From positions 192,001-256,000 of the forward strand of contig CAVYJM010000011.1 in assembly GCA_963768855.1 (NCBI GenBank): a DNA stretch of 64,000 nucleotides. The letters run 5' to 3'. The notes under the pieces were generated by a model. That model saw nothing but the letters and a program-made list of their open reading frames with translations. It was not told the DNA's origin and ran no database searches. A program made the translations under genes and the position numbers. Positions 15,233 through 48,881 of this stretch are shown piece by piece (position 1 is the first letter of the stretch; every line of letters begins with the position of its first letter). Source of the stretch: an uncultured Thermoplasmata archaeon (GTDB taxonomy: Archaea > Thermoplasmatota > Thermoplasmata > RBG-16-68-12).

Positions 15233-15307
15233 GCTCCCGTAGTCTAGTCCGGTCAAGGATCGGGGCCTTTCGAGCCTCAGACGCGGGTTCGAATCCCGCC
15301 GGGAGCA
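15233..15307 (+). tRNA. tRNA-Glu(TTC)
   Basis: Acceptor GCTCCCG/CGGGAGC, anticodon arm GGGGC-CTTTCGA-GCCTC, T-arm GCGGG-TTCGAAT-CCCGC. Confidence 0.95.
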
Positions 15308-18060: not shown

Positions 18061-18145
18061 CGAGGAAGGTGTCCTGCCTCCGTCGCCCCCTCGCGGCCGG
18101 AAGGGCTTTGCCCGATGAGGTTCGAAGCCACATGACTTCGAACCA
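18061..18145 (+). repeat. Hairpin repeat copy 2 plus 11-6-11 palindrome
   Basis: GAGGAAGGTG..CCGTCG..GCGGCCGGAAGGGCTTTGCC, then AGGTTCGAAGC-CACATG-ACTTCGAACCA (18118-18145). Confidence 0.85.
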
Positions 18146-18194
18146 CTGTGGAAATGAAGGCCCGACGGAGAGCCATCGGACCTCTTGGGCCAGG

Positions 18195-18450
18195 TTACGT
18201 GCGTGCAGGCACTGGGATAGCTGGTTGGATTCCCGCGAGCATTCTGTCAACGACTTCCTGGAAGTCACGCAGGGAGCGTAGCTCGCCGGCTTCCATGGCG
18301 CGACGGCCATAGGCCTCCATGAGCTCCGTGTCACGCCCCACGAGGATTGCTTCGGCCTCCGGAAGGAGTTCCTCCTCGAGCTTGATGTGCTCGCGCTGCA
18401 TCGTCAGGTACGTGTGCGCGGCCTCGAGGAAGGCTCTGCCCGCGGATGGG
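18195..18450 (-). pseudogene. C-terminal fragment of a hemerythrin-like protein
   Basis: FLEAAHTYLTMQREHIKLEEELLPEAE resembles HI..E hemerythrin helices; upstream part is low-complexity. Confidence 0.5.
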
Positions 18451-18647
18451 TCCGTTGACCCGAGCCCGAGTCCGTCGCCCACCTTGGGCGTGTCTCCCTC
18501 GCTCCCTGCCCTTGGACGGTCTGTGGGAGCCCGCGGTGCGCCCCAGCCGAGCGTCTCGCATGACCCTCCCTTGAGGTTCTCCGAAAATTGCAACCCGGGT
18601 TTCGAAACCTTCTTAAACGCCGCGCGTCGCTACCACTCGGAAGGCCG

Positions 18648-19208
18648 ATGTCATTCGAAACGGAGGACTGTCAGCACCTCGTCGCGGACGCGGGAGCCAT
18701 CCTGGATCGGGACGGCGTGACGGAGGCGAGCTTGAGGGCCGTCGGCTCGCGGATGCAGCGTATCGCGGGCGCCTTCGAACCTCGCACGGTCGCGGGCCTC
18801 AAAGCCCTTCACGGGACGGGGTCCTCGTCCACGGTCCTCCACAGCGAATCCGTGGACGGGCTCACCCTCGCTCTATCCCGATTCCCCCCAGAGGCCGCGA
18901 CCCCGGTCCACAACCACGGGACGTGGGGCGTCGCCCTCGTGATCGAAGGCAGGGACCACCACATCCACTGGCGCCGGATGGATGACGGCTTGACCCCCGG
19001 GCGCGCCAGGCTCGAGATCGATGCCGACGAGATCGTCCCGGGGGGCGAGTTCGTCTCCTGGCTCGGGCCGCCGGGAGACATCCACAGTCAGCAGGGCGTC
19101 TCGGGGCCGGTGTACGAGCTCGTCCTCTTTGGCCGTAACGTGATGGTCCATCCCCGCCTGTATTTCGACCCCGCCGCGGGGACGGTCCGCGAGCGCTTGC
19201 CCCAATGA
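18648..19208 (+). CDS. Cysteine-dioxygenase-like cupin
   Basis: TPVHNHGTWGV, PPGDIH; TTCTTAAA box about 30 bp upstream suggests a leaderless transcript. Confidence 0.8.
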   Translation: MSFETEDCQHLVADAGAILDRDGVTEASLRAVGSRMQRIAGAFEPRTVAGLKALHGTGSSSTVLHSESVDGLTLALSRFPPEAATPVHNHGTWGVALVIEGRDHHIHWRRMDDGLTPGRARLEIDADEIVPGGEFVSWLGPPGDIHSQQGVSGPVYELVLFGRNVMVHPRLYFDPAAGTVRERLPQ

Positions 19209-19215
19209 CGGGGGG

Positions 19216-19257
19216 CCCCGCCCCCTCGCTCCCGAGCGGCCGGAAGGTTCGTATCCC
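19216..19257 (+). repeat. Hairpin repeat copy 3
   Basis: CCCCGCCCCCTCGCTCCCGAGCGGCCGGAAGG, 8 bp after the cupin stop. Confidence 0.85.
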
Positions 19258-19271
19258 CTGCGGATGATACT

Positions 19272-19607
19272 ATGTCGGAGCGGGTGCGTGTGAGAACCCC
19301 CCAGAAGGTGGGTGTGCTCGGCATCGTGCTGATTGTCGTAGGGGCATCCTTCACGGTTCTCCTTCCGTGGAGCGGGACGACGCTCAGCGGTGCCTCGTAC
19401 CCCGTAGGAGTCGCCTTCTTCGCGCTCGGCGGAGCCCTGTTCTTCGTCGGTGTTATCTGGGCATGGGTGGTCGGGTTTGCGAACGCCACACGGGCATGGG
19501 ATACGGTTCGACGGCCGCTGTTTTGCCCCGCGTGCGGCCAGCGGTATCCGGAGGAGCAGGGACACACCTGCCCGAAGGATGGCTCGGAACTGAGACCCGT
19601 GGCGTAG
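19272..19607 (+). CDS. Two-TM membrane protein with C-terminal zinc ribbon
   Basis: Two hydrophobic helices; CPACG...TCPKDGSEL. Confidence 0.75.
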   Translation: MSERVRVRTPQKVGVLGIVLIVVGASFTVLLPWSGTTLSGASYPVGVAFFALGGALFFVGVIWAWVVGFANATRAWDTVRRPLFCPACGQRYPEEQGHTCPKDGSELRPVA

Positions 19608-19613
19608 GTGACT

Positions 19614-19637
19614 CCGAGTCGGCCGGAAGAGCTACGC
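19614..19637 (+). repeat. Truncated hairpin repeat copy 4
   Basis: CCGAGTCGGCCGGAAGAGCTACGC, 6 bp after the stop. Confidence 0.6.
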
Positions 19638-20384
19638 ATTGCAACCCTTTGGGCATCGCCAAGACCCGTCGCCACCATCGTGCTCGTCGAGGGACTCGAT
19701 GTCCGGGAGCCACGCCTGACCGCATTTTCGACATTGGACGATGATGCGCTGGGAACCAACGATGTCCACGACTTCGAAGAAGGCGGAAGCAGGCGGCCTC
19801 ACGCCTGAACGAAGAAAGAACCGCGGATAAGGTCTTGCAGCCGGGGGGGCGGATATGAGGAAAGGGCCGAGGTCCGCAATGGACCCCGGCGTGCAGGGGA
19901 ACAGGGCGTCGGCTAACGAAGCACGAGGAGCGTCTCGATAGCATTCTGCTAAATTGCCCGGCTCAGGCCTATCATCCCGAGCATAGTGTCAAAGTTCAAT
20001 CCTCGCTGATTGAAGTCCCTGGCACATCGTTTTCTCTCCATATGGAAGGCAACTCGCTATGGGTCCGGACGGACCTGTTCTCTCCATTAAGTCAGTCTAA
20101 GGGGAAAGTGAGGCGACCGGGGGTGCCCAATCGCCTCATGCGGGGACAGTAGACCAGACGACGAATCTCGCCTCCACGCGCTGATTGATTCCGGTTTGAA
20201 GGATTGACCACGAATCCGCACGACGGCGCTCCACCCATACGCCCGGTGCAGATTTGGCCTGTACCTGTCGTCAAGGTACCGACTAGACTCCCGTGGCACC
20301 TTTCCCCTTCATGCTGCGCCCTCGCGGGCGCGGCCCCTTCCGGGGCAAACAACGACTAAGTGCCGGGAGCTGCATCTCGCCAGC

Positions 20385-20579
20385 ATGGCTCTCAAGATGA
20401 GCGCGACGGGGATCATTGAGGTGTTCGTCTTTCTTGGCGTGGCAACCGTCGCCCTACTGCTGGTTGGGGTCGCGTCGAGCATGGAACAAGTCTTTCTTCT
20501 CGGCATTGGAGTTCTAATCCTAACTGGCATCATGGCCGGGGTTGTGGTCCTCTACAGGGCGCTCTCCAGCCCGGAGTAG
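20385..20579 (+). CDS. Small two-TM protein
   Basis: 64-aa hydrophobic ORF. Confidence 0.5.
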   Translation: MALKMSATGIIEVFVFLGVATVALLLVGVASSMEQVFLLGIGVLILTGIMAGVVVLYRALSSPE

Positions 20580-20597
20580 GCGGTCTCGAGCACGGGC

Positions 20598-20951
20598 ATG
20601 CTCGTGTTCGCCGCGATGTCGGGCTCGAGACCTCGGCTGCGGCGGTGGGGAGCCCTCCTCGGCCTCTTGGCCTTCGTCCTCGCACTCGTTGCGCTCCTCT
20701 ACGTCCTGGTGCTGCTCCCAGGAGCCGCGACTCAAGACATCGGGGCTCCCGCCATTCTGTACTCGGGCTTCTGGGGTTCCGGAGACTACTCATTCATGCA
20801 TGGAGGTGCAACCGTCACCTGGGGAGCAGGATGGGCCTGGTACGCGCTCATGGCCGCGGCCGTCCTGTCTCTGATTGGCGTCATCGTCCTGTTCCGCGCG
20901 CGGGCACCATCCTCCATGCAGGCCGCTCCGCAGGCAACACAGCAGCCGTAG
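20598..20951 (+). CDS. Small membrane protein
   Basis: TM segments around TWGAGWAWY; Gln-rich tail. Confidence 0.6.
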   Translation: MLVFAAMSGSRPRLRRWGALLGLLAFVLALVALLYVLVLLPGAATQDIGAPAILYSGFWGSGDYSFMHGGATVTWGAGWAWYALMAAAVLSLIGVIVLFRARAPSSMQAAPQATQQP

Positions 20952-20955
20952 TCCA

Positions 20956-21041
20956 GAGGAGAGTGCCCCCGCCCCGTCGTCCCCCGAGCGGCCGGAAGGG
21001 CTATGCCTCGAAGAGGTTCGAAGTCACATGGATTCGAACCC
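20956..21041 (+). repeat. Hairpin repeat copy 5 plus 11-6-11 palindrome
   Basis: GAGGAGAGTGCCCCCGCCCCGTCG..CCGAGCGGCCGGAAGGGCTATGCC, then AGGTTCGAAGT-CACATG-GATTCGAACCC (21014-21041). Confidence 0.88.
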
Positions 21042-21130
21042 GCCGGGTCACGGTCCCCTCTAGGCTGGGGGAGGACCCTCGGGCCTGCCTCCGCTACAGT
21101 TAAGCGGGGACATCCCTTGGGCCGGCCCTG

Positions 21131-21967
21131 GTGACGCCCATGGTTCCGAGGACCGCGGGGGATGCCTCTCAGCTCTGGACCGCCTTCCGCCACCAGTCTC
21201 TCTTCTACTTGCGGACGAACCGGTTCCTCGGGCTCCTCGCTGTGACTGTCGCCTTGGCCGCCGTTTTCCTTGCTTTTGAGCTGTATGCCGGGACCGCCTC
21301 GGTTTTGGCGACGAACCCGACAGCTTCCTCCTATCTCGCAGGGTCCCTTGGAAGCGTGGGGTTCAGCGTGGCCCTCACCGCCGCGTTCTTCGGAGGCGAT
21401 GCGATCGCGAGGGACTTCGGGAGCGCCACGGGGTACTATGTCCTCGTCCTTCCCGTGCGTCGGAGGGTCCTGCTCCTGGGACGGTACCTCGCAGCCTCCC
21501 TGGTCTCGTTCGGGGTCTTGCTCTCCTACTACGCCATCGCGGCGGCGGGCACCTGGTACTTCTACGGGGGCCTCCCCATGACCCTGGCGGCCTCCCTCGG
21601 ACTCGGGGCGCTTCTCACCCTCGCGACCGTGGCCTTCGCGTTCTTCCTGAGCTCCCTCTTTCGGAACCCGTCCGTGAGCATGATCGTGACCGTCCTCCTC
21701 CTCTGGATCGCCCTGCCTACCATTACCAGCGCTGTTGGCGAATTCGGCGGCATCGAGCCTTGGCCGTCTTTGTCCTACGGCAGTAATGTCGTCACCTTGG
21801 TCTTCGCAGGGAGCTACGCTCACGACTCCCTCATGACGATTGGCCCCCTAACGTTCCATGTCTTCCAGCCCTACATCTGGGAGGGGATCGCCATCATGAT
21901 CGCGTACCTCGTGATTTTCCTCGCAATCGCGGGCCTCCTGTACCGTTACAAGGAGGTCCGCGGATGA
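21131..21967 (+). CDS. ABC-2 type transporter permease
   Basis: Six TM segments; GGDAIARDF..TGYY..VLPVRR..LLLGRY. Confidence 0.85.
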   Translation: MTPMVPRTAGDASQLWTAFRHQSLFYLRTNRFLGLLAVTVALAAVFLAFELYAGTASVLATNPTASSYLAGSLGSVGFSVALTAAFFGGDAIARDFGSATGYYVLVLPVRRRVLLLGRYLAASLVSFGVLLSYYAIAAAGTWYFYGGLPMTLAASLGLGALLTLATVAFAFFLSSLFRNPSVSMIVTVLLLWIALPTITSAVGEFGGIEPWPSLSYGSNVVTLVFAGSYAHDSLMTIGPLTFHVFQPYIWEGIAIMIAYLVIFLAIAGLLYRYKEVRG

Positions 21968-22902
21968 CGTCGGGACCGAGCCTCGAAGCGGCCGACCTCA
22001 GCAAGGCCTACGCCCGCGTACTCGCGCTCGACGGCGTGTCGTTCCGGTACGAGGGGCCGGGGGCGATTGGCTACCTCGGGCCCAACGGCGCGGGCAAGAC
22101 GACGACCCTCAAGCTGTTCACGAGCCTCCTCCGGCCGACTCGCGGGCGGGCGTTCGTTGACGGCATCGACGTTGCGAAGAATCCGAAGGCGGCCCTCGCG
22201 GATGTGGGCGCATTGATTGAAACCCCCGAGCCCTACCCACGTCAGAGCGTGGAGGAGGCCCTGCGGATGGTGGGGGAGTTCCGGGGCATACCAGCTGAGG
22301 AACTCCGGGAGCAGATTGGGAAGTACGTCGAGGCTTTGGATCTTCCGCCCCTCGACGCTCGGATTGGCAGCCTCTCGAAAGGCCAGAAGCAGAGGGTCGT
22401 CTTCGCGGCGACGCTCCTCGGGGACCCACGACTGCTCCTCCTCGACGAGCCGACGAACGGCCTCGACCCGGCGGAACGGGTCCGGGTACGCGAGGTGCTG
22501 CGGGACCTCAAGAAGGACCGCCTCATCTTCATGAGCTCCCATCTGCTCCAAGAGGTCACGGAGGTCTGCGACCGCGTGATGTTCCTGAACCGGGGCAAGG
22601 TCCTCCTCGAGGACTCTGTCGCTCACTTGGCGGATCGGTTCAAGGCGACGCGGGTTGATGTGGAATTCAGTGCTCCGGTCGCCATGAATCGCCTCAGCCC
22701 GCTGCAAGGCCTAGCCCTAGGGGTCATGGCCCTCTCGGACCGCCGGCTGCGGATCGAGTTCGACGGATCCACGGAAACCCGCACGAAAATCCTCGTCGCG
22801 TGCCAGGCCGTCGGCGCCGTCGTCTCCTTCAGCAGCGCCGGCCTCGCGCTTGAGGATGCGTACCTCCAGCTGCTTCAGGGTTCAGCCAACGGCGGCCGTT
22901 AG
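21964..22902 (+). CDS. ABC transporter ATP-binding protein
   Basis: GPNGAGKTT, LSKGQKQR, LLLDEPTNGLDP, SSHLL. Confidence 0.92.
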   Translation: MTSGPSLEAADLSKAYARVLALDGVSFRYEGPGAIGYLGPNGAGKTTTLKLFTSLLRPTRGRAFVDGIDVAKNPKAALADVGALIETPEPYPRQSVEEALRMVGEFRGIPAEELREQIGKYVEALDLPPLDARIGSLSKGQKQRVVFAATLLGDPRLLLLDEPTNGLDPAERVRVREVLRDLKKDRLIFMSSHLLQEVTEVCDRVMFLNRGKVLLEDSVAHLADRFKATRVDVEFSAPVAMNRLSPLQGLALGVMALSDRRLRIEFDGSTETRTKILVACQAVGAVVSFSSAGLALEDAYLQLLQGSANGGR

Positions 22903-22961
22903 CCCCAGCAGGCAACCCACCGGGCGGGCCGCTCCAAACGCAACCCAGCAGCTGTAGCCAA

Positions 22962-23049
22962 GAGGGAAGGTGCCCTCGCCCCGTTCGCCCCCGAGCGGCC
23001 GGAAGGGCATTATCCCCGGTGAAGTGCGAAATCACATGGAATCGAACCC
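22962..23049 (+). repeat. Hairpin repeat copy 6 plus degenerate 11-6-11 palindrome
   Basis: GAGGGAAGGTGCCCTCGCCCCGTTCG..CCGAGCGGCCGGAAGGGC, then AAGTGCGAAAT-CACATG-GAATCGAACCC (23022-23049). Confidence 0.85.
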
Positions 23050-25677: not shown

Positions 25678-26037
25678 GTGATGCAACCGAATACGACAGA
25701 AAGCGGTCCGTCCGAGACACCATGCCGCGCTTGCGGCTCATCTGCGCGGTTGGTGGGGACCGAGCAATTTCGTGTAGGAGGCACGTCCGGTGGCTGGAAG
25801 CTGCTGTTCGGTGAATGGGCCGAGCTGGGCGAGGAGATGATGCCCCTTGAGATGTGGGTGTGCCCTTCCTGCCGTCGAGTAGAATTCCGAGTCCCCGTGG
25901 GCTACAAGCGACCGGATGAGGTCGCGCGGGGACTGCGATACGCATGTCCAGGATGTGGCGGCGATGTTTATCACGGTCAGACCGCGTGTCCCGAGTGCGG
26001 CTACGTGTTGAAGGATTCCCCCACGTCAGAGGGGTAA
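25678..26037 (+). CDS. Double zinc-ribbon protein
   Basis: CRACG...VCPSCRRVEF, CPGCG...CPECG. Confidence 0.75.
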   Translation: MMQPNTTESGPSETPCRACGSSARLVGTEQFRVGGTSGGWKLLFGEWAELGEEMMPLEMWVCPSCRRVEFRVPVGYKRPDEVARGLRYACPGCGGDVYHGQTACPECGYVLKDSPTSEG

Positions 26038-44480: not shown

Positions 44481-44553
44481 GGGCTCGTGGTCTAGTGGTT
44501 ATGACGTCACCCTGACATGGTGAAGGTCACCGGTTCGAATCCGGTCGAGCCCA
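44481..44553 (+). tRNA. tRNA-Val(GAC)
   Basis: Acceptor GGGCTCG/CGAGCCC, anticodon arm TCACC-CTGACAT-GGTGA, T-arm ACCGG-TTCGAAT-CCGGT. Confidence 0.95.
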
Positions 44554-44589
44554 CTTACCTTCCGGTTCGAAATCTATATCCCCTGGCGC

Positions 44590-45933
44590 GTGAATCCCGT
44601 TCTCGTGGTTCGAGTCCCAGGGAGAGGCGGGCGCGGGGCGAAGTACGTCAGCCTCCTGGCCGATCCCTCCATGGAGCGATGGCATCGGAACGTGGCCCGC
44701 GGATCCCAGATCACCGCGGACGTGTACCTTCGGCGACTGGGTCATGTGTGCGCGACCCGCGGTACCTCGCCTGCCGCCCTTCTGACAATGAGTTCGAAGG
44801 AGCGGCGCGACTTCGCCGCGGACCTCGTCTCGGATATGGAAGAGGCGGGCCGCGCGGGGAGCTACGTCCTCTCCACCCTGCGTGCGATCAAATCGTGGCT
44901 CGCGTTCAACGGAGCCGCCCTGGAGCATCCGATCAAGGTCCGGGGTGCGCAGGCGACACCCACACTGGAGAAGGAACGCGTGCCCACGCAGGACGAGCTT
45001 CGGCGGATTCTCCTCGCCGCTTCGCCTCGGGAGCGATGCGCGGCCGCCCTGCTGGCCCACGCGGGTCTGCGGCCGGAGACCCTGGGGAACTACCGTGGAA
45101 CGGACGGGCTTCGCCTTGGCGACCTCCCGGACATACGGATCAAGGGCAAGATCGTGGCCTTCAACAAGCTGCCCGCCCAGGTCGTCGTCCGTCCGGAGCT
45201 CTCCAAGTCCGGCCGGAGGTACTTCTCGTTCCTCGGCCCCGAGGCCGCCGACTACCTGAAGGCGTACCTCGAGGAACGGATGCGGGACGGGGAACGCTTG
45301 AACGAGGAGAGCGACGTGATCGCCCCGGCGTGGTCCACGAAGGCCTTCCTGACGTCCATCAACGTGAGCGACGCGGTGCGGAAGGCGATCCGCGTGGCCG
45401 GCTTCCGCTCCCGGCCCTACGTCCTCAGGGCGTACTTCGACACCCAGCTCCTGCTCGCGGAGAGCAAGGGGAAGATGACCCACGCCTACCGGCAGTTCTT
45501 CATGGGCCACGTCGGGGACATCGAGGCTCGCTACACGACGAACAAGGGCCGCCTACCGCCCGACCTCGTCGAGGACATGCGCGACGCGTACCGGCGGAGC
45601 TTGTCGTTCCTTGAGACGACGAAGCCGACGGACCGCGAGGGGGAGCTCAAGGCGTCCTTCCGGCGGCAGATGCTCCTCGTCGTGGGCCTCGAGGAGAAGG
45701 AGATCGGGAAGATGGACCTCGACGGGATGAGCGACGCGGACCTCCAACGGATCGTCCGGGAGCGGCTCGTGGGCGCTTCCGGTGGCGCCGGCAACGGTTC
45801 CGTGAATGGGCCCCCGAATGGCTCACGCCAGACGATCGTCGCCCTGTCCGCCGTGGAGACTTACCTCGAGCGCGGCTGGGAATGGGTCGCGCAGCTGCCC
45901 GACGATCGCGCGGTGCTCAGGCACGTCGGTTGA
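44590..45933 (+). CDS. Tyrosine recombinase (site-specific integrase)
   Basis: Catalytic set GLRPETL (R), YVLR (Y replacing H in H-x-x-R), FMGH, ARYT (Y); N-terminal SAM-like domain. Confidence 0.9.
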   Translation: MNPVLVVRVPGRGGRGAKYVSLLADPSMERWHRNVARGSQITADVYLRRLGHVCATRGTSPAALLTMSSKERRDFAADLVSDMEEAGRAGSYVLSTLRAIKSWLAFNGAALEHPIKVRGAQATPTLEKERVPTQDELRRILLAASPRERCAAALLAHAGLRPETLGNYRGTDGLRLGDLPDIRIKGKIVAFNKLPAQVVVRPELSKSGRRYFSFLGPEAADYLKAYLEERMRDGERLNEESDVIAPAWSTKAFLTSINVSDAVRKAIRVAGFRSRPYVLRAYFDTQLLLAESKGKMTHAYRQFFMGHVGDIEARYTTNKGRLPPDLVEDMRDAYRRSLSFLETTKPTDREGELKASFRRQMLLVVGLEEKEIGKMDLDGMSDADLQRIVRERLVGASGGAGNGSVNGPPNGSRQTIVALSAVETYLERGWEWVAQLPDDRAVLRHVG

Positions 45934-46144
45934 GCAGGATCGTCCAGACCTCCATCTTCGCGAGGAACTCCGGGGGTGTCAGGACATCACGCTCGGCGAG
46001 GATCACCGAGCGGAGGGGATGATCGTCGGGGAGATGGGCGAGGACGAAGTCCTTCAGCCTGTGGATGGACACGGCGGAGATCCCGTGGAGGGCCGGCGGT
46101 GCCTCGACGGAAACGGATCGAGGTCTACGAGGTCCGCGGGGCAT
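45917..46144 (-). CDS. Small hypothetical protein
   Basis: LKDFVLAHLPDDHPLRSVILAERD..EFLAK..W. Confidence 0.55.
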   Translation of the reverse strand: MPRGPRRPRSVSVEAPPALHGISAVSIHRLKDFVLAHLPDDHPLRSVILAERDVLTPPEFLAKMEVWTILLNRRA

Positions 46145-46838
46145 CCTTCCGCATCGCCTCCTTCCTCGTGCTGCGTGATTTGCTCAATGAACAGCCCACG
46201 AGGCATAGGCGGCGCGCGGTCGTCCGTCCGACGCCCAGGGTCCGGGCCACCTGAGCCCAGGAACGTCCGCTCCGGCGCAGCTCAAGCGCCCTGGCGGGCA
46301 GACCGGGGTCCCGGGCCAGAGCGGAGACCCGGGCGCGTCCCCAGAGGAACGGCTTTCCGCGTCTCGCGGCCTCGGCACGGCGGGCCGCGATCCCCGCTGC
46401 GACGCGCTCGCCGATCGCTCGGCTCTCGAACTCGGCGGCCCACGCCAGCACGGCGAGGATGAGTTCCGCCGTAGGTGCGTCGGGATCCCACCACGTCTCG
46501 CAGACGGAGTAGACCCGAACCCCGGCACCTTGCAGCGTCTTGAGGACACGGAACATCTCCGCGATGCCTCCGCGCGTGAACCGGTCCAGGCGGAAGACGA
46601 TCAGGATTTGGAAGCGGTGCATCGCCGCGTCGTGGAGGAGCTTGCGGAGGACGGGACGATCCCGTCGTCGTCCCGAACCCTCCTCCTCGTAGACCGTGAC
46701 GCCGCGGAGGGAGAACCCGAGCCGCTCCACCAGCTCCCGGCACGCGTGGACCTGGGTCTCGAGACCGTGACCTTGGAGCTCTCGTCCCGTCGAGATGCGC
46801 GCGTAGATGGACGCGGAGCGCGCAGGTCGGTCGACCAT
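46125..46838 (-). CDS. Serine recombinase (resolvase/invertase) with C-terminal HTH
   Basis: IYARIST..Q, EEEGSG, LIVFRLDRFTR, FESRAIGERV..G, SWAQVARTLGVGRTT. Confidence 0.9.
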   Translation of the reverse strand: MVDRPARSASIYARISTGRELQGHGLETQVHACRELVERLGFSLRGVTVYEEEGSGRRRDRPVLRKLLHDAAMHRFQILIVFRLDRFTRGGIAEMFRVLKTLQGAGVRVYSVCETWWDPDAPTAELILAVLAWAAEFESRAIGERVAAGIAARRAEAARRGKPFLWGRARVSALARDPGLPARALELRRSGRSWAQVARTLGVGRTTARRLCLVGCSLSKSRSTRKEAMRKDAPRTS

Positions 46839-47107
46839 CAGCCCTCCCCGTGCCGCGAATCCGCGGGGTGTACAACCCCCGCGGGGGCCTGGGGGTCGCC
46901 CTCCCTGCCCGCCGGGGGCTCTGCGGGGTGTGAAACCCCCGCCCGGCGCATCTCGAGGCATTCCTGGAGGTATGCGCCCAGGGCCTTGGACAGGGTCGCG
47001 TACCCGCGGTCGATCATGAAGCGGGCGAGTTCGTGGAAGACCTCCTCGCTCACCACGCCCGCGATCCGGACGAATCCCTTCCTTAGACGACCCGTGGGCA
47101 TCAGCAC
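46838..47107 (-). CDS. Small ribbon-helix-helix-like DNA-binding protein
   Basis: FVRIAGVVSEEVFHELARF..RGYATLSKAL..YL pattern. Confidence 0.5.
   Translation of the reverse strand: MLMPTGRLRKGFVRIAGVVSEEVFHELARFMIDRGYATLSKALGAYLQECLEMRRAGVSHPAEPPAGREGDPQAPAGVVHPADSRHGEG
46863..46942. repeat. Two palindromes GCGGGGTGT(AC/GA)AACCCCCGC 60 bp apart
   Basis: Copies at 46863-46882 and 46923-46942; related palindrome at 48645-48662. Confidence 0.6.
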
Positions 47108-48853: not shown

Positions 48854-48881
48854 TGGTTCGCCGTCGACCGGATTCGAACCA
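48854..48881. repeat. 11-6-11 palindrome containing an inverted 17-bp copy of the tRNA-Val T-arm
   Basis: TGGTTCGCCGT-CGACCG-GATTCGAACCA; 48864-48880 is the reverse complement of 44532-44548. Confidence 0.75.

Follow-up and report, generated by a model that had tools for sequence, protein, structure and literature searches.

T-loop-like dyads in tRNA-linked accessory islands of an uncultured Thermoplasmata genus: a candidate site of site-specific recombination

Downstream of a tRNA-Glu gene in the genome of an uncultured Thermoplasmata archaeon lies an accessory island in which a short palindromic element with T-loop-like TTCGAA boxes, here called the dyad, occurs three times. The genome (G000) is a 2.87-Mb metagenome-assembled genome (MAG) of 66% GC in 24 contigs, and the window, meaning the whole stretch of DNA that was analyzed, comprises 64,000 nucleotides of contig 11 (192001–256000). 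Comparisons were made with the 38 genomes of the genus (G000 and 37 congeneric MAGs) and with 401 genomes of the class. In addition, a species-level collection holding one genome per species (185,579 species) was searched with the exact dyad pattern, and metagenomes were searched with a pattern that left the centre letters free. The dyad-bearing genomes, which include the congeneric MAGs G009, G013, and G014, are incomplete MAGs. A preliminary description of this DNA had read the three copies as dif-like sites of a tyrosine recombinase, and several of its claims are reconsidered below.

The island begins past tRNA-Glu, with a weak GC3 signal (GC content at third codon positions), and overall GC content drops from about 0.66 to the left of the third dyad copy to 0.51–0.57 to its right. 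In eight relatives, the DNA past tRNA-Glu yielded none of the window-island genes, although the contigs of many relatives break at that point. The 2.0-kb interval between copies 2 and 3, previously described as exactly an ABC transporter pair, does contain an ABC-2 permease and an ABC ATPase gene but also holds a duplicated gene tail and a copy of a hairpin repeat. The 2.9-kb interval between copies 1 and 2, described as cupin and membrane genes, likewise proved to be more complex, as it also includes a minus-strand open reading frame (ORF), a hairpin copy, and a 22-nt copy of a tRNA-Asn attachment (att) core. The best match of the permease within the genus is 37% identical, and an exact-protein look-up of the ATPase for strain variants showed the protein to be unrecorded. 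The minus-strand ORF (18195–18593) ends 50 bp past dyad 1 and has a hemerythrin-like H..EE..LLPE motif; its frame agrees with the local GC3 signal, and Pfam gave no match. No integrase was found within 15.3–26.1 kb. Two possible boundary repeats were rejected: no second tRNA-Glu 3' end indicating an att duplication is present in the window at up to three mismatches, and a 20-bp repeat around an ADH gene (23040 and 24225) agrees at 17 of 20 positions, which is about chance level.

The pattern TTCGAA-NN-CACATG-NN-TTCGAA, with up to three mismatches allowed, occurs at three places only in the window and at none in 100 shuffles; all three palindromes first reported are present at their coordinates, far above chance. 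Their architecture is a different matter. The 11-bp arms of the 11-6-11 arrangement initially proposed pair at merely 9/11 positions in site 1, 8/11 in site 2, and 5/11 in site 3, and the symmetry extends into the presumed 6-bp spacer (CA..TG), so that the centre is a 2-bp CA. Since the symmetry enters the spacer and 10 of 12 half-site positions are symmetric, a 12-2-12 arrangement describes the dyad better, with the layout GGTTCGAA-xx-CA, CA, TG-xx-TTCGAACC. In the 26-bp consensus obtained by aligning 12 copies, GGTTCGAAGTCACATGGATTCGAACC, the outer 8 bp are symmetric, as are again the CA and TG beside the centre. The central CA is found in 11 copies, and the copy on contig 12 of G000 has TA instead. 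Half-site positions 9 and 10 break the symmetry, reading GT on the left and GA on the right, and are conserved in that form; the dyad therefore has polarity, and all three window copies share one orientation, as had been claimed. What was termed classic tyrosine-recombinase geometry holds as far as an asymmetric dyad is concerned but is not specific to tyrosine recombinases, since 12-2-12 suits serine-recombinase crossover sites at least equally: these have two inverted half-sites of about 12 bp around a 2-bp centre, which is the arrangement seen in the dyad.

Each window copy is preceded by a hairpin repeat, with core GAGCGGCCGGAAGGGCTATGCC, that has approximately 20–40 copies in the genome, often clustered. 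Seven co-oriented copies lie between 15.4 and 26.1 kb of the window, and three of them bear a dyad. The repeat tends to start at or just past stop codons (19206, 20958, 22965, and 26034), and outside the window it follows tRNA-Thr and the right attachment site (attR) of a tRNA-Asn island; it looks like a 3'-end-associated repeat. The reported spacing of about 12 bp between hairpin and dyad was confirmed, but the three associations are not independent. All three hairpin copies in question lack the canonical right arm GGGACGGGT and run directly into the dyad after CGA(A/T)GAGG, and this shared deletion makes the three hairpin-dyad units one subfamily. The duplicated unit spans about 85 bp; between sites 2 and 3 the shared stretch is longer, about 130 bp, and takes in a gene tail (AAPxATQQx-stop). 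Conservation of the CACATG spacer among the window sites was thus borne out and is accounted for by common descent of the duplicated unit. It seems that the repeat unit provides genes with tails and stop codons: at 22900–22951, past the TAG stop of the ABC ATPase, 16 codons continue in the same frame and resemble the C-terminal tail of a 117-aa membrane ORF located ahead of dyad 2. An IS200/IS605 or RAYT origin of the hairpin was rejected, as G000 has no Y1 transposase and its TnpB genes lie only elsewhere. A 119-aa zinc-ribbon ORF (window 25678–26037) has a hairpin copy on each side, and the hairpin together with the first bases of this ORF recurs on contig 6 at 325865 and 886139.

Table 1. 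Positions of the dyad copies and of associated features (window coordinates unless stated otherwise)
Feature	Position	Strand	Remark
tRNA-Glu	15233..15307	+	start of accessory island reaching ~26.1 kb
Hairpin repeat, copies in window	15402, 18063, 19206, 20958, 22965, 25616, 26034		repeat also on contigs 4, 6, 7, 8
Truncated hairpin-repeat copy and 12-bp linker ahead of dyad 1	18063..18117	+	
Dyad copy 1, GGTTCGAAGCCA CA TGACTTCGAACC	18119..18144	+	half-sites agree 11/12
tRNA-Asn att core copy, 22 nt, exact (T-loop to 3' end)	20211..20232	+	between dyads 1 and 2
3' tail of 117-aa membrane ORF (..AAPQATQQP stop)	20911..20957	+	repeated at 22917-22964
Truncated hairpin-repeat copy and linker ahead of dyad 2	20958..21013	+	starts 7 nt past stop of 117-aa membrane ORF
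Dyad copy 2	21015..21040	+	identical to family consensus; half-sites agree 10/12
ABC-2 permease and ABC ATPase pair	21131..22902	+	between dyads 2 and 3
Copy of membrane-ORF gene tail	22917..22964	+	in frame past ABC ATPase stop; 78% identical
Truncated hairpin-repeat copy and linker ahead of dyad 3	22965..23021	+	
Dyad copy 3	23023..23048	+	both outer boxes degenerate
tRNA-Val, left attachment site (attL) of 21-kb island	44481..44554	+	
Divergent tyrosine integrase of tRNA-Val island	44590..45933	+	phrog_1, E 1e-8
Resolvase-type serine recombinase, C-terminal helix-turn-helix (HTH), tRNA-Val island	46125..46961	-	
Related dyad GGTTCGCCGTC-GACC-GGATTCGAACC	48856..48881	+	
Cousin dyads, Nitrososphaerales MAGs	L022 1525-1620; L021 560-635		

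The dyad is rare but strictly kept where it occurs. At up to two mismatches it was found in 4 of the 38 genomes of the genus, that is, in G000 (four copies) and in three of its 37 relatives (one copy in G009, two in G013, and one in G014); several MAGs that are 94–98% complete do not have it. Four metagenome contigs also carry it, all with a GTCACATG(G/A)A (GTCACATGGA-type) centre. Across these 12 copies, from at least eight genomes or contigs, 24–26 bp are kept, including the asymmetric centre, with a mean column identity of 85%. Nine copies deviate from the 26-bp consensus at two positions or fewer (with Y counted where the centre has C or T), and copy 3 and the G013b copy are degenerate. 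Orthologous genes of the same genomes share only 65–89% of their DNA sequence. In the species-level collection, the exact pattern was found in G009 and two Nitrososphaerales contigs only, with about two chance matches expected. The Nitrososphaerales cousin dyad (GTTCGAATCCA-CA-TGGGTTCGAAC, 11-2-11, centre CA) lies 2 nt past tRNA-Ile in one MAG and, in another, past a tRNA-Ile 3' fragment beside a ParE toxin gene; it is possibly a chance match and serves as a lead only.

The surroundings of the copies differ from one to the next. In G000, each of the four copies sits in an island of atypical composition that adjoins a tRNA gene. The fourth is located on contig 12, in a region of 54–60% GC beside tRNA-Ser and an integrase gene; this low-GC island (contig 12: 105000–122960), with genes for a DpdA-like TGT, QueC, Ogg-HhH, ThsB-TIR, and 8xMP, is likely a defence island. 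To the left of the contig-12 dyad, the intergenic DNA contains a tRNA-Asp-like 3' fragment along with short hairpin repeats, 82–97% identical across the genus. The intergenic settings of the copies are tandem, convergent, or divergent, with the next start codon 77–440 bp away, and the neighbouring genes (SnoaL-like, ABC, DtxR-ZnuA, EamA, AsnC-type, DUF1761, and AAA-TPR) vary in all combinations of direction. The flanks are unrelated on both sides, except for the left flanks of the window copies among themselves and of the contig-12 and G009 copies (73 bp), and in every one of these related pairs the homology goes no further than the dyad's right edge. A conserved neighbouring ORF was sought by tblastx of all flanks, which returned noise and generic ABC similarity only. 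An origin as the terminal repeat of an insertion sequence (IS) was also discarded, as single-arm matches on contigs 4 and 6 lie within a 1.7-kb stretch that overlaps between contigs and is not an element end.

Taken from sequence comparison, the dyad is plausibly a DNA site recognized by a protein and carried in the accessory DNA of one genus of uncultured Thermoplasmata. More specifically, and with a probability that we put at roughly 0.4, it may be the core (crossover) site of a site-specific recombinase that acts in trans, the site travelling with accessory DNA; a recombination-site family is plausible but unproven. The retained asymmetric centre, the mostly unrelated flanks, and the varied settings fit a recombination site and argue against a promoter operator. 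The dyad also behaves like a junction element, in that flank homology stops at its right edge and GC content shifts at site 3, and its degenerate copies break the dyad without compensating change, as expected of a decaying DNA site. Two recombinase subunits would bind the invariant outer boxes, strand exchange would take place at the asymmetric CA centre, with the GT..GA around it giving polarity, and two co-oriented copies could release the intervening DNA as a circle able to reinsert at another copy. The window copies would be paralogous versions of a single composite unit, made up of a truncated hairpin repeat, 12 bp, and the dyad, which appears to close three consecutive gene modules in the mosaic island that follows tRNA-Glu. 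The third copy has decayed and is probably inactive. As for the enzyme, it is presumably not the integrase encoded at 44590, nothing indicates XerA, and the 12-2-12 layout would allow a serine recombinase as readily as a tyrosine recombinase.

Several observations weigh against a recombination core site. The assembled sequences compared yielded neither an empty site nor a circle junction or transposed module, and viral contigs gave no match to the dyad. The identity of the window copies is simply explained by duplication of a larger unit, and the direct repeats around the ABC pair reach about 100 bp leftward beyond the dyad, a feature that plain core-site insertion would not produce. Nor did a partner emerge. 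No recombinase gene lies directly beside any dyad copy, and none common to the four dyad-bearing genomes was detected among these incomplete MAGs. The integrase at 44590, the partner first proposed, is anticorrelated with the dyad, having orthologues in G005, G003, and G023, which do not carry the dyad, and none found in G009, G013, and G014, which do. The serine recombinase of the same tRNA-Val island, one of four resolvase-domain genes in G000, has close orthologues only in G009 (with the dyad) and G023 (without it), and no TTCGAA dyad was found near these orthologues. No tyrosine recombinase common to the four dyad-bearing genomes was seen either. G000 encodes six tyrosine recombinases that match PF00589, and an XerA-like gene is located on contig 11; every PF00589 match falls outside the island, the closest one on contig 11 at a distance of about 180 kb.

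Attachment sites of tRNA-linked islands bear on the question from another side. The tRNA-Val island extends over contig 11: 236481–257517, and its attR is a 24-bp exact direct repeat 1.5 kb past the end of the window. In this attR, GATTCGAACCGG-TT-CCGGTTCGAATC, an inverted T-arm copy abuts the core and generates TTCGAA-N10-TTCGAA, with the spacing seen in the dyad. The related dyad within the same island joins an inverted 17-nt tRNA-Val T-arm (at 48864) to the left arm GGTTCGCCGTC, an arm that is also present in the G013b copy, and the sequence of the tRNA-Asn att core located between dyads 1 and 2 recurs on contig 6, where it forms the attR of a tRNA-Asn island of 28 kb (1041397 to 1069498). 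These att features lend indirect support to the earlier idea of a recombination site, and the islands are mosaics made by site-specific recombination, with TTCGAA-box dyads within their att repertoire. Derivation of the dyad arms from a tRNA T-arm, as first suggested, could not be upheld: neither a tRNA nor a piece of one was detected at the sites by ARAGORN and Rfam, none of the 40 tRNAs of G000 extends the match past the T-loop GGTTCGAATCC, and the T-arm CATGG-TTCGAAT-CCATG occurs in 0 of the 401 class genomes.

How well the dyad would serve other functions can be judged from the same data. It might be an operator at which a dimeric transcription factor controls nearby accessory genes (ABC exporter, SnoaL-like, and metal uptake), and the palindrome does lie within intergenic DNA, copy 2 and the G009 copy each precede a co-oriented operon, and SnoaL-like genes and ABC ATPases are found near 3 of 12 copies and 2 of 11 loci, respectively. 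However, these SnoaL-like proteins are unrelated at E 1e-3, the ABC ATPases are only 26% identical, several copies lie between convergent genes, and no regulator gene is common to the loci. An archaeal operator would be expected at a fixed place at the BRE/TATA elements, with a linked or shared regulator; the dyad has neither, its distance to the downstream start or TATA box ranging from about 60 to more than 350 bp. Copy 2 is followed by a TATA-like TTAAGC 58 bp past the dyad, and the G009 DtxR-ZnuA operon has a palindrome of its own and a TATA box about 24 nt before its ATG, this box starting 78 bp beyond the dyad (TATA boxes were assigned by inspection only). Furthermore, the spacer and flanking-inner positions are conserved like the arms, which is unusual for operators, and we regard this function as unlikely. 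Two candidate binders were rejected: G000 has no orthologue of the G009 DtxR, and none of the seven G000 paralogues of a small DNA-binding-like family with a GRPYLYFW motif is encoded near any copy. Proteins with this motif, about 80 aa long, are encoded on contigs 6, 10, 17, and 18 (for example, contig 6 at 699040 and contig 10 at 39216). An RNA hairpin in a 3' or 5' untranslated region, with a stem of 8–9 bp and an 8-nt loop, is very improbable. The region of copy 1 folds better than shuffles (z = -2.8), but those of copies 2 and 3 do not (z = -0.8 and -1.4), orientation to neighbouring genes is inconsistent, and Rfam gave no match. Structured RNAs keep their pairs by compensatory change, whereas here four of nine pairs are invariant and four vary only by breaking, and the one compensatory cell (0.3 expected) is no better than in shuffles.

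Alternatively, the dyad could be a relic without function, a T-loop-like sequence from a mobile-element end or att region that was copied passively with the hairpin repeat through segmental duplication and is now decaying. The derived deletion shared by the window copies, which implies a single origin, the degeneracy of copy 3 and G013b, the failure to find a partner protein, and the abundance of tRNA 3' fragments in the islands (tRNA-Asn at 20211, a tRNA-Asp-like fragment near the contig-12 copy, and tRNA-Val at 48864) would all agree with such an origin. We nevertheless consider it doubtful, because 9 of 12 copies remain within two differences of the consensus despite gene divergence of 11–35% and unrelated flanks, and neutral sequence would be that uniform only if its spread were very recent. 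A site-specific binding protein might instead use the dyad in another role at the DNA level, for example as a centromere-like site for partitioning an integrated plasmid, as a domain boundary, or as a roadblock. Such a role would account for full-length conservation in accessory DNA and for a small number of copies per genome, three of them within 5 kb; parS-type sites are likewise few per genome, clustered, and conserved over their full length. Yet no ParA/ParB-, SegAB-, or AspA-like genes were present among the ORFs scanned near the copies, and the single copies of the other genomes are unclustered, so that we hold a role of this kind to be quite unlikely.

The recombination core site that we favour can also be set beside known systems. 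Small serine recombinases act at crossover sites (hix and res site I) that consist of 12-bp inverted half-sites around a centre of 2–4 bp. The 26-bp 12-2-12 dyad resembles them in its invariant outer boxes and in the asymmetric central dinucleotide that sets polarity, and differs in that no adjacent recombinase gene, no accessory sites or enhancer, and no product of inversion or resolution were seen. The archaeal dif site used by XerA is single-copy, conserved among relatives, and shares half of its positions with bacterial dif (PMC2958812). The dyad is similar to it as an imperfect inverted repeat of about 28 bp, but the label dif-like was not sustained: instead of a single conserved copy with 11-bp arms, a 6-bp spacer, and ATAA/TTAT-type inner arms, there are four copies in G000, presence in 4 of 38 genomes, and inner arms (AAGT/GATT) that bear no likeness to those of dif. 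The dif consensus used for this comparison was drawn in part from PMC2958812. No convincing host dif emerged when G000 was scanned for 11-6-11 palindromes and for ATAA-N6-TTAT sites. One candidate, an AT-rich 11-6-11 palindrome with centre CATGTG on contig 21 (75318–75345) of this 66% GC genome, was set aside, as it is kept in just 3 of the 38 genomes (outside G000, only in G013 and G023).

The pdif modules of Acinetobacter plasmids are accessory gene modules bounded by XerC/D-like sites (PMC6449649, PMC5790767, PMC7399989). Like the dyad, pdif sites are short dyads without a recombinase gene of their own, situated around small accessory modules in variable parts of a replicon and, as is proposed for the dyad, served by an enzyme in trans. 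They differ in resembling the host dif and in usually alternating in orientation, whereas the dyad is unlike dif, co-oriented, and archaeal, and its use by XerA is unsupported. Integron attC arrays and integrase-less CALIN arrays, including archaeal ones (PMC9668308), share with the island a structured repeat of about 60–130 bp at or after the stops of successive ORFs, a putative crossover point at the far end of the repeat, and, as in CALINs, no integrase nearby. Differences are that the genes here lie on both strands, that the dyad is present on only 3 of 7 repeats, and that RYYYAAC and GTTRRRY cores are lacking: GTTCGAA departs from the latter in its RRR and Y positions, and the unit has no RYYYAAC at its 5' end. 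An IntI beside the array or in the same genome would be expected of an attC system, and none was found through the PF00589 matches, which were not examined for the IntI-specific domain. Att cores of archaeal tyrosine integrases that target tRNA genes (reviewed in PMC8371274) have T-loop-type TTCGAA boxes as the dyad does, and the tRNA-Val attR has the same spacing. Such cores are identical to the 3' part of a tRNA gene, with a cognate integrase beside one copy; at the dyad copies, no tRNA 3' end was found and no integrase lies beside the dyad. Thus, the dyad does not belong to the dif, attC, or tRNA-att families, and its closest analogues are pdif modules, attC/CALIN arrays, and hix/res-type sites. 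Elsewhere in the window, an aIF2-alpha gene is encoded.

A broader and more speculative possibility, to which we give little weight, is an integrase-less archaeal system of gene-module exchange in which a T-loop-like dyad, sometimes fused to a 3'-end hairpin repeat, would be the crossover site. A recombinase of the host or of an island, acting in trans, would then capture and release small accessory modules in tRNA-linked islands, and the system, if real, would give uncultured Thermoplasmata a functional counterpart of integron cassettes or pdif modules. The assembly of archaeal genomic islands from small gene modules is poorly understood, and archaeal integrons and Xer-dependent modules are recent or hypothetical. 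An oriented, strictly conserved dyad at module boundaries offers a 26-mer that can be tested against a handful of candidate recombinases, and it could be used as a marker of module exchange in metagenomes. Even if the dyad turned out to be merely a regulator site or a relic, it would still document the build-up of T-loop-like sequences and a 3'-end hairpin repeat in the islands of these archaea.

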